DNA of 64,000 nt. It comes from Octopus vulgaris (taxonomy: Eukaryota). The DNA lies in the NCBI GenBank assembly GCA_951406725.2, contig OX597815.1:102238001-102302000 (forward strand). Reading direction: 5' to 3'. Numbering within the stretch: position 1 is the stretch's first letter; the number at the start of each line of letters is the position of its first letter. This document shows, in pieces, positions 1 through 40,832 of the stretch. A program made the translations under genes and the position numbers. Under the pieces are notes generated by a model that saw only the letters and a list, made by a program, of their open reading frames with translations, searched no databases and had not been told where the DNA came from.

Positions 1-11207
<11,207 letters not shown>

Positions 11208-11307
11208 NNNNNNNNNNNNNNNNNNNNNNNNNNNNNNNNNNNNNNNNNNNNNNNNNNNNNNNNNNNNNNNNNNNNNNNNNNNNNNNNNNNNNNNNNNNNN
11301 NNNNNNN
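11208..11307. other. Scaffold gap (100 N)
   Basis: Run of N. Confidence 1.
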
Positions 11308-11349
11308 CACCTGAAGAAGGCTGGAGGGTATATCAGCCGAAACGTTGTG
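11308..11349 (+). ncRNA. Minimal type-I hammerhead ribozyme (Penelope pLTR type)
   Basis: cac-CTGAAGA-a-GGCTG(gagggtatat)CAGCC-GAAA-CG-TT-gtg. Core is intact, helix III is the palindrome AACGTT, and helix I (cac/gtg) is truncated by the gap. Confidence 0.8.
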
Positions 11350-11639
11350 TTAACAACAAACAAGTTGAGGACAAATATCGTATGTAAATGATGTAAAAAA
11401 TGTAAATAATGTACATAATTCGTCATCTTTTAAATATAGAACAGAAATGTATGATATGTGTTGTGTCATTTTGTTTGGTGGTGTTTTTTTTATTAGTGGT
11501 TGTGGTGTGATTGGTGTTGTGTGACTTAGCGTGAGGCGTTGATCGTGCAGAGTATGTTCTGTGTGTATTATTTTATAGAAACGGAATGAATGAGAGTGAA
11601 GGAAGGAGTCCCTGATACGGTTTTTACGGATTTGTTTAT

Positions 11640-11880
11640 GTTTCTTTTCTTTGAAAATCATATTTAGTACTCCAAGTATTATCTACACTGTTTTCATTCC
11701 TCATATTGTACTTATTTCAGATTCAAGATCCTTATACTTTGATTATATCTCAATTTCTTTTAGCCATGCTTTGAACAGAAGGGTCTGAGTTGTTTATTAC
11801 AATGTAGAGGCTCTCACCCGACTCTTTGATAATTATATCTGGACAATTCTGCTGACGCGACTGTGTCTGTAAATGGCTCA
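11640..11880 (-). mobile_element. Decayed R4/Dong RLE fragment
   Basis: Manual minus-strand translation gives PDIIIK, SKYKDLESEIS and IILGVLNMI, with stops and frameshifts. Confidence 0.6.
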
Positions 11881-12135
11881 GACTTGGCAACTGCCTTGTT
11901 TGTTGGAAATGCTGTTGTTACTTGTCTCATTGTATTGGTTACTAGCAGTATAACCCGGCTTTTCAAACCAAACTAAGTAACATCGACGTCAAATTTGGTC
12001 GAAATCTGTTGAAATTACGCTGGATATAGATCCGCAAAGGGAATCCACCACCAAAGAATTGTTCTCAAGAAATAATTCAACACACCAAGAACGTAAGCGA
12101 GCAGGACAAATGAAAACTAACGAAAATATAGATTA

Positions 12136-12211
12136 ACTCTATACAATTGTTTCATCGTTAATAAATTATGTAATTTTACTTACATAAATATCTTCGATTC
12201 TTCAGTAGAGT
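12136..12211 (-). ncRNA. Type-I hammerhead ribozyme, left arm of the inverted repeat
   Basis: Reverse complement reads actcta-CTGAAGA-ATCG...ttatgtaa(gtaaaa)ttacataa...CGAT-GAAA-CAATTG-TA-tagagt. Confidence 0.85.
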
Positions 12212-12482
12212 ACGTCAAAAATATAATTTGTTGAACTGCACGGCAAATATCAACATCAGGTTGGAGAGGGGCGAACAGTTCGGCCTATTATATTCACAGT
12301 TACATTCAAATGCCCTCGTTCTGGCGCGCTAAATTCCCGGATATAAATACTGCATAAGTAATTTACTGCCGGTTTGAGAACATATTATAATGAAAGTCAA
12401 AATAAGGGTGAAAAACTATTCGCCCCTCTCCAACCTGATATTGATATTTGCCGTGCAGTTCAACAAATTATATTTTTGACGT

Positions 12483-12558
12483 ACTCTACTGAAGAATCGA
12501 AGATATTTATGTAAGTAAAATTGCATATTTTATTAACGATGAAACAATTGTATAGAGT
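12483..12558 (+). ncRNA. Type-I hammerhead ribozyme, right arm of the inverted repeat
   Basis: actcta-CTGAAGA-ATCG...CGAT-GAAA-CAATTG-TA-tagagt. 6-bp helix I, palindromic helix III ACAATTGT, predicted GUA cleavage after 12552. Confidence 0.85.
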
Positions 12559-13731
12559 TAATCTATATTTTCGCTATTTTTCATTTGTCCTGCTCGCTTA
12601 CGTTCTTGGTGTGTTGAATTATTTCTTGAGAACAATTCTTTGGTGGTGGATTCCCTTTGCGGATCTATATCCAGCGTAAGAGCGTCCACATAGTGGATTC
12701 ACTCATAGTTTTGTATTAATAATATTTACTGAATCCCAGTATATACGCTAGGCCACTTGGTGTTTGAATTGGTGTTATTAAATTAATATCCAATTTTTTC
12801 ATCCTTATTTTGACTTTAATTATATATATATATATAGGGAACACACACACACATACACACATGTACGTACGTACACCTATTGCATACAAGTTTTTTGTAC
12901 GCATACTTGTTCGTGTGTGTGCGTGTTGCCCATATATTAACAAAACACTTTTTTCCTCGATGGAAAAAACCCAACAAAAGTCTTAACAAAAATACTTACT
13001 TGTCGCTTGAAGGAGACTTAATTCCTGTTTGCAAACAATGGTGATTTCTCCGACCAGAAAATTGTTAAAAGTTTTGGTTGAAAATTTACTTGTACTGCTA
13101 TTCGCTGGTGCCTCTGGTAAAAATAAGTTGACGAAAATACAGCTAGGGTCATGACGAATGTCCTCCTAAAATTTGAGCGACATGTGTGCTAATTTGTGGA
13201 CGTGCATAAATAACAATTACGTACACACACACACACGTAAACACACACATACATCCTTTTATATATACAGATATCGTTTGCACTTTATGTTAGCATCTTT
13301 TTCCATTATATTATTTTTTGTTATTATTCATCGTAAGTTTGTTCGTTTGTTTATACGTTCAAAAGTTGTTAGCTGCTGAAATTTTGTTATGTAACATTTG
13401 TTTAAGCCAAGCAGAACGCATAGGGCTGGCTGGTCCCTTTGTGTCTTAGCCTATCTAGGACTGAAATTTGTTGGAAAGATTTTCAAATTTTGTTTTGAAA
13501 AACACTTAATTTTTTTTTGCTTTTTACAAATATGGCATCAAACTGAAGGGAGAGATAGAAATGATTCTCAAAGACAGGTGTAGCCAATTTCAGAATCCTT
13601 CCTCTTCAACCTCCGCTCGGAAGAGGAGAACGTTTTTCAAGCATTGAAAATTCAAAGTCCGAATAATTGCGCCGCTGCTATTATGGAAAACAACAACAAC
13701 ACCAGCAGCAGCAGCAGCAGCAGCAGCAGAA

Positions 13732-40719: not shown

Positions 40720-40767
40720 GTCTCTGATGAAGGGATATCCCTAATATCCCAGAAGCAGCTGTAAGAC
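40720..40767 (+). ncRNA. Minimal type-I hammerhead motif with one core substitution
   Basis: gtct-CTGATGA-a-GGGATAT(cccta)ATATCCC-a-GAAG-CAGCTG-TA-agac, with GAAG in place of GAAA. Confidence 0.7.
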
Positions 40768-40832
40768 TAACTTTCTCTTTATAAATGTCCTGAAAATTCC
40801 GCACAGCTTTGGTTTTGTTGTCTAATTTTATT

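Follow-up and report, generated by a model that had tools for sequence, protein, structure and literature searches.

According to the available portions of the literature, insertions of Penelope-like elements (PLEs) are 5′-truncated, form partial tandems and often carry an inverted 5′-truncated copy beside the 5′ end, and some PLE clades are biased towards microsatellites or (TA)n (PMC8557442). Among inverted arrangements, head-to-head is the commonest, and its junctions show palindromes (PMC3846280); inverted pLTRs are a routine feature of curation (PMC8969392). A PLE protein nicks and extends both strands at AT-rich DNA, starts inside the RNA and uses uncleaved RNA (PMC11167929). Dual minimal hammerheads occur on opposite strands, 100-700 bp apart, and a dimeric form has been described for animal hammerhead motifs with a weak helix III (PMC4209133). 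Retrozymes consist of 150-450 bp units in head-to-tail tandem, with at least two same-strand ribozymes and circular RNAs (PMC7229834; bioRxiv 10.64898/2026.07.22.740005). Ribozymes go unmentioned in the available portion of PMC13282606.

The locus described here lies in eukaryotic DNA that is rich in repeats, among them long microsatellites and fragments of reverse transcriptases, within a window of 64,000 nt of Octopus vulgaris DNA (the whole stretch that was analysed). With good confidence, it can be explained as two truncated head-to-head copies of an abundant non-coding hammerhead repeat, likely co-inserted into (TA)n by a PLE RT-endonuclease. The first-pass annotation had regarded the same sequence as a mobile "ambisense unit" and as a candidate for an undescribed system. 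Its identification of PLE-type hammerheads in a non-coding, repeat-derived sequence is retained, but the palindrome as a mobile unit is not supported, since its boundaries are crossed by family contigs, its junction is seen on one contig at single-locus depth and the breakpoints of comparable joints vary. Nor is the arrangement new, as head-to-head truncated PLE copies have already been described in animals.

The inverted arms occupy 12015-12280 and 12414-12679 and align without gaps at 260 of 266 positions (97.7% identity, or 2.3% divergence). They correspond to segment B alone, the overlap of two longer copies running from 12415 to 12015 on the minus strand and from 12414 to about 12824 on the plus strand. 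Followed in the direction of the ribozyme, family sequence runs through A (12385-12281), then B (the arm, with the hammerhead), then C (12680-12824). The left copy (12015-12415, minus strand, 401 nt) reads Z-A-B, with Z (12386-12415) contributing 30 nt, A (12281-12385) 105 nt and B 266 nt. The right copy (12414-12824, plus strand, 411 nt) reads B-C-Z′, in which B spans 12414-12679 and C, including Z′, spans 12680-12824, with a (TA)n tract at its end. Their 5′ ends meet head to head at 12414/12415 with a 2-nt AA overlap. Most of what had been called the spacer is segment A, family sequence upstream of the arm, as indicated by depth and by three contigs that bridge B and A. Segment A is unique to the left copy and segment C to the right copy. 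The left copy stops at the B/C boundary with a 2-nt TT overlap with the host repeat, and at its 3′ end the right copy extends 145 nt beyond it, as compared to 30-40 nt for the described optional PLE tail. Together, A, B and C amount to 105 + 266 + 145 = 516 nt. Z is an inverted copy of Z′ (12795-12824) at 28 of 30 positions.

The six arm mismatches comprise three A/G, one C/T and two transversions, a pattern not distinguishable from ordinary mutation, and an ADAR footprint was rejected on this basis. Among these differences, changes that are in the minority within the family occur in both arms. Compared with family depth, both arms also share a minority base at 12642, 12672, 12538 and 12572 and their mirror positions, which is expected if one template gave rise to both.

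Each arm contains the series ACUCUA, CUGAAGA, a 45-nt helix II region, GAAAC, AAUU and GUA, followed after the predicted cut by UAGAGU. Alignment and descriptor agree with the first-pass annotation that the inverted repeat carries type I hammerheads on opposite strands, at 12483-12558 (plus strand, right copy; predicted cut 12552/12553) and at 12136-12211 (minus strand, left copy, read 12211-12136; predicted cut between 12142 and 12141), so that the first base past the predicted cut is 12553 and 12141, respectively. The features it listed (an intact core, a 6-bp helix I, a palindromic ACAAUUGU before the GUA site and a long helix II) are likewise found in both arms. The required core, C3 U4 G5 A6 N7 G8 A9 and G12 A13 A14 A15.1 plus a UH site, is complete in each, and N7 is A or U among relatives represented by contigs. 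With a type I descriptor (helix I of at least 5 bp, CUGANGA, helix II of at least 4 bp, GAAA and UH), the window matches in two places only, one per strand; when one arm was dinucleotide-shuffled 20,000 times the same descriptor matched once, and 100 shuffled versions of 11311-64000 gave a mean of 0.02 matches each. Rfam returned nothing at its gathering score, and no hammerhead family was among its matches at E ≤ 10. Exact-pattern scans gave 0 and 1 matches in metagenomes, 5 in viral sequences and 8 in prokaryote genomes; these 14 loci were dismissed as chance, none extending past 26 nt.

Helices I and II form the MFE fold of the 76-nt motif. Helix III has 2 bp in the monomer and 8 bp in a predicted co-folded dimer joined by an intermolecular ACAAUUGU helix (-33.8 versus 2 × -12.3 kcal/mol). 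Thus, like the dimer-working PLE hammerheads in the available text of PMC4209133, the motif is type I with a short palindromic helix III, a predicted dimer fold and an enlarged helix II, and the 272-bp spacing of the two opposite-strand motifs falls within the 100-700 bp of the pairs reported there. In contrast to the 6-8 bp of the variants in that source, the helix II region here is 45 nt long with three stacked stems; in addition, an A-U pair replaces G10.1-C11.1, there is no extra base after A9 and helix I has the canonical 6 bp. The A-U pair closes helix II in both arms, and G10.1-C11.1 is described as highly conserved in hammerheads although not strictly required (PMC4209133). Three listed contigs cover the whole ribozyme at nearly equal length, which marks the long helix II as a trait of the family. 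A C-G pair of helix II at this locus is possibly U-A in relatives, a hint only, as the two sides come from different contigs.

To place the locus within its family, Logan contigs of four out of 24 runs (X1, X4, X8 and X11) were compared with 11600-13100 at 85% likeness. Runs X1, X4 and X8 are labelled as organisms A, B and D, and X11 is guessed to be RNA. Depth was about 50-115 in the flank (11600-11905; X1 and X4) and 4,000-77,000 per bin over most of 11957-12823. With mirrored bins summed, family depth reached 42-1,812 times that of the flank, a summed depth that is no copy number and from which divergent copies escape; it is read only as hundreds to thousands of family loci. High copy number was seen in the runs of all three differently labelled organisms. 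Relative to the flank, depth was 64-177 times in segment A (12281-12364), 42-101 times in the 5′ part of the arm, 120-583 times in the 5′ half of the ribozyme and 121-705 times in segment C (12722-12823), with a peak of 611-1,812 times directly downstream of the ribozyme half, in the 3′ half of B. Run X11 also contained family contigs, one of them over the whole hammerhead, with no cover at 12416-12466; these say nothing firm on expression of the locus.

Family sequence continues past the arms. Counting only contigs with at least 31 letters on either side, among the 32 pieces listed of 4,060, the B/A boundary (12280/12281) is bridged by at least three contigs, X1 #3 (12195-12311), X4 #19 (12166-12312) and X8 #28 (12209-12372), and 12679/12680 by at least one, X4 #21 (12594-12732), which reaches 53 nt beyond. 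The bridging contigs carry 12-19 differences to the locus, indicating that they stem from other loci. Since family contigs cross both the inner and the right outer arm boundary, the arms are not the bounds of an element. A MITE or fold-back DNA transposon was rejected because the family runs past 12679 and 12280 and there is no TSD.

The head-to-head junction itself looks like a one-off. X1 contig #4 (12359-12492) spans 12414/12415 with 0 differences over 134 nt, and its depth of 42.9 resembles that of other single-locus contigs; uniqueness was judged among the 15 joints listed of 29 and the 32 pieces listed of 4,060. The first-pass annotation had itself named a one-off rearranged relic as the alternative to its proposal, and this largely describes the locus, with the junction on one listed contig at single-locus depth. 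Among the 15 listed joints, at least seven further antisense-to-sense head-to-head joints occur at other breakpoints (12080>12612, 12134>12543, 12134>12561, 12134>12645, 12187>12779, 12255>12772 and 12363>12676), each on one contig per run at a depth of 27-80, and at least one more joint connects opposite strands. Two of the other joints are near-perfect palindromes. In X1, four other inverted joints accompany the 12414/12415 junction, too many to be allelic variants of this locus if X1 stems from one diploid animal. The shorter side of the other joints is only 20-39 letters long, and short sides are flagged as unreliable in repeats. Five of the 14 5′ ends at these junctions fall within 12543-12561, around the predicted cut site (binomial 0.0002, or 0.011 with position 12134 counted once), and depth drops several-fold directly upstream of the region equivalent to 12543-12561. 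This clustering is a lead only, as the ends are few and selected and may be alignment breaks.

The pair sits in a different high-copy repeat, whose left part (11941-12016, plus strand) is marked by a rise in depth from about 11930-11960. After 12016, other copies of this host repeat continue with GGTTAACATATATA, a TA tract, seen as a loose end in 35 X1 contigs and missing at the present locus, and other contigs link the halves of the repeat to each other (11987>12939). Together, the loose ends and these joints place the pair inside the TA tract of the host repeat. The (TA)n tract at the end of the right copy occupies 12821-12836. Bases were lost on the left side of the insertion, and no target-site duplication is visible at the ends of the locus. 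The host repeat (11941-12016 and about 12939-13272, with depth data to 13100) has an internal microsatellite, starts with ACTAGCAGTATAACCCGGC and ends with TTTTATATATACAGAT; we take it to resemble non-autonomous Helitron/HINE elements. Within the TA tract, 12830-12937 forms an imperfect, CA/TG-rich palindrome with 41-nt arms at 76% and high depth at 12875-12925, and is possibly a MITE-like insert.

These features follow the insertions of endonuclease-bearing PLEs as given in the available text (PMC8557442, fig. 2 legend; PMC3846280). The resemblance includes inverted truncated head-to-head copies with variable breakpoints (the locus plus 7 of the 15 joints listed), a short junction overlap, an AT-rich (TA)n target at 12821-12836, and a terminal-region type I hammerhead whose helix III is short and palindromic; it may extend to a short partial tandem, suggested by the 30-nt Z upstream of A. 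Outside the locus, the link between Z and A consists of ATTTATAATT, an AT-rich loose end of 10 nt lying behind 12387 on one contig each of X4 and X8 and matching the end of Z at 9 of 10 positions. Unlike those insertions, the locus has no RT/GIY-YIG ORF, present or found linked, and no TSD, and its one-copy-only 3′ stretch measures 145 nt rather than the 30-40 nt of the tail (PMC8557442, PMC3846280). The biochemistry in the available text of PMC11167929 suggests a route to two head-to-head cDNAs. A PLE protein would nick the AT-rich target, and two cDNAs would be made from one uncleaved (or circular) RNA source; both would stop short, and the 2-nt AA overlap would serve to join their ends. C would be missing from the left copy because synthesis started earlier or because sequence was deleted afterwards. 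The absence of an RT/GIY-YIG link and of a TSD, together with a left end at 12015 rather than at Z, counts against this explanation.

Mobilisation by a PLE is thus inferred from structure. The locus contains no PLE reverse transcriptase or GIY-YIG ORF and so does not qualify as an autonomous PLE, and with the short A and B frames neither Pfam nor a HMMER search nor either of two word searches gave a credible RT/GIY-YIG partner for the family. Segment A was considered as the end of a GIY-YIG domain and rejected: word search and Pfam found none, and the two HMMER matches were both tandem-repeat proteins with summed weak scores. The first-pass statement that there is no ORF does not hold literally, as a 46-codon ORF is present at 12539-12679, but no meaningful ORF exists. 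The left-arm counterpart is interrupted by a stop, and at 12642 about 99% of the X1 depth has TAG in place of TGG as codon 35. As a candidate PLE N-terminus this ORF was rejected, with no homologue match and a stop in relatives.

The family can also be compared with non-autonomous elements. Like the animal non-LTR retrozymes in the available text of PMC7229834 and bioRxiv 10.64898/2026.07.22.740005, it is non-coding, has a GC content under 50% and one type I hammerhead per inferred unit, and fits their proposed PLE mobilisation; unlike them, it has two ribozymes on opposite strands here and an inferred unit of about 516 nt. The locus was not classed as a retrozyme, with one motif per strand in the window rather than a tandem and an inferred size of 516 nt as against 150-450 bp. 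MRC1 of Chlamydomonas, a non-autonomous PLE, offers a similar model of a non-coding, pLTR-forming sequence dependent on an autonomous PLE, but it belongs to the Chlamys clade, mostly without canonical hammerheads, and no autonomous partner was identified here (PMC8557442, available text).

What kind of family supplied the two copies is a separate question from how they were inserted. The 30-nt Z/Z′ duplicate suggests a non-coding unit of about 516 nt, and we lean slightly towards a non-autonomous unit of this size (A+B+C) copied from partial tandems. A competing account, for which there is a substantial if smaller chance, opposes only this family-level step and leaves the insertion event the same: the family would be the terminal-repeat (pLTR) region of an autonomous PLE or its gutted by-product, with Z acquired by a local template switch and no ~516-nt unit. 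Depth agrees with this account in peaking directly 3′ of the hammerhead and declining both ways, a misfit with a single fixed 3′ end at Z′ because the peak lies in the 3′ half of B and not at the end of C. Single motifs in truncated copies are also typical of most PLE hammerheads (PMC4209133, available text), and support for Z-A elsewhere amounts to just the 10 nt. However, the right copy finishes with Z′ precisely at (TA)n, and Z lies directly above A, an arrangement that a permuted unit yields in one step. Moreover, no ORF remnant was found in the searched A or B frames, and the pLTRs of PAc and Pen2a include the first codons of the ORF (PMC11167929, PMC3846280, available text).

At the level of the locus, a single insertion followed by DNA-level fold-back or repair, duplicating part of it in inverted orientation, would account for the minority bases common to the arms, the mere 6 differing sites in 266, and the ragged left end with its missing host bases. 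This origin is improbable, as A is found only on the left and C only on the right, so that a simple fold-back needs further deletions, and the family shows recurrent head-to-head junctions. Still less credible is a purpose-built mobile unit that carries ribozymes in ambisense arrangement and whose cleavage would be in competition with folding into the hairpin. Both cores are intact in arms of 97.7% identity, and the symmetric joint 12134>12561 is present in both X1 and X4, but a divergence of 2.3% predicts intact cores without selection. The arm ends also differ from the family ends, the junction has single-locus depth, breakpoints vary, and the ribozyme is predicted to be unable to fold in read-through RNA. 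An inverted mis-join in this repeat-rich scaffold might be suspected from the 100-N gap at 11208-11307, 700 bp away, and from a nearby 3.76-kb tandem duplicate at 97.6%. The chance of such an artefact is minimal, given the short-read contig that crosses the junction and matches the locus at all 134 nt, and given the six arm differences with family-minority changes on both sides. Co-insertion of two truncated copies is thus the preferred reading, and the locus is probably a dead by-product.

RNA folding bears directly on the proposed competition between cleavage and hairpin. The long hairpin expected from read-through RNA was borne out by prediction, with a 266-bp fold at -507 kcal/mol for the full read-through RNA. 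Competition is unlikely, however. Whichever strand is read, the antisense arm is made ahead of the ribozyme and is predicted to trap it fully; on the plus strand, the helix I bases are predicted to pair with the left arm with a probability of 1.0 from synthesis on, and the helix I probability is 0.0 at every tested 3′ end from 12558 on. Even on the lone motif, 14 extra 3′ bases allow a rival hairpin (12551-12567) that lowers the predicted probability of helix I to about 0.04. Helix III is weak and likely depends on a second copy on the same strand, absent at the locus. If the locus is transcribed, its read-through hairpin would be a generic dsRNA substrate. The unique left flank (11605-11702) is covered by an X11 contig at a depth of about 8, reflecting either intronic transcription or DNA carry-over.

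The locus itself cleanly illustrates a PLE insertion pattern already in print and has little wider import. The family is a modest resource for specialists. What PLE hammerheads do is called open (PMC8557442, PMC11167929), and no RNA ends were found at the hammerhead cut site (PMC11167929), as far as the available text of these sources goes. A high-copy family with a long, variable helix II, and with 5′ ends that may pile up directly 3′ of the cut site, would allow this role to be tested. The architecture is known in animals. The parent family, marked by its long helix II, may be absent from catalogues; the literature listings searched contained no publication on it, and it may already be listed in Repbase or Dfam. 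A more ambitious picture is doubtful: an uncatalogued non-autonomous PLE parasite of ~516 nt, larger than described retrozymes, with a dimer-type hammerhead and a family-wide 45-nt helix II at hundreds or thousands of loci, in which many copies would start beside the cut site, with cleavage setting template ends in vivo, and habitual head-to-head hairpins would silence the family via ADAR or small RNAs.

Other features of the window were noted in passing. At 11308-11350 (plus strand) lies a third, unrelated minimal hammerhead with CUGAAGA, an extra A, a 6-bp helix II and GAAACGUU followed by GUG, its 5′ helix I strand cut off by the 100-N gap at 11208-11307; it is another PLE-type family. A possible decayed hammerhead at 40724-40800 (plus strand) has CUGAUGA, a 7-bp stem and GAAA, without a matching helix I under the strict descriptor. 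The 3.76-kb tandem duplicate (3392-7149 and 7465-11205, 97.6%) contains a fragment of a reverse transcriptase flanked by very long (TA)n tracts and represents either a recent duplication or a haplotype mis-join.
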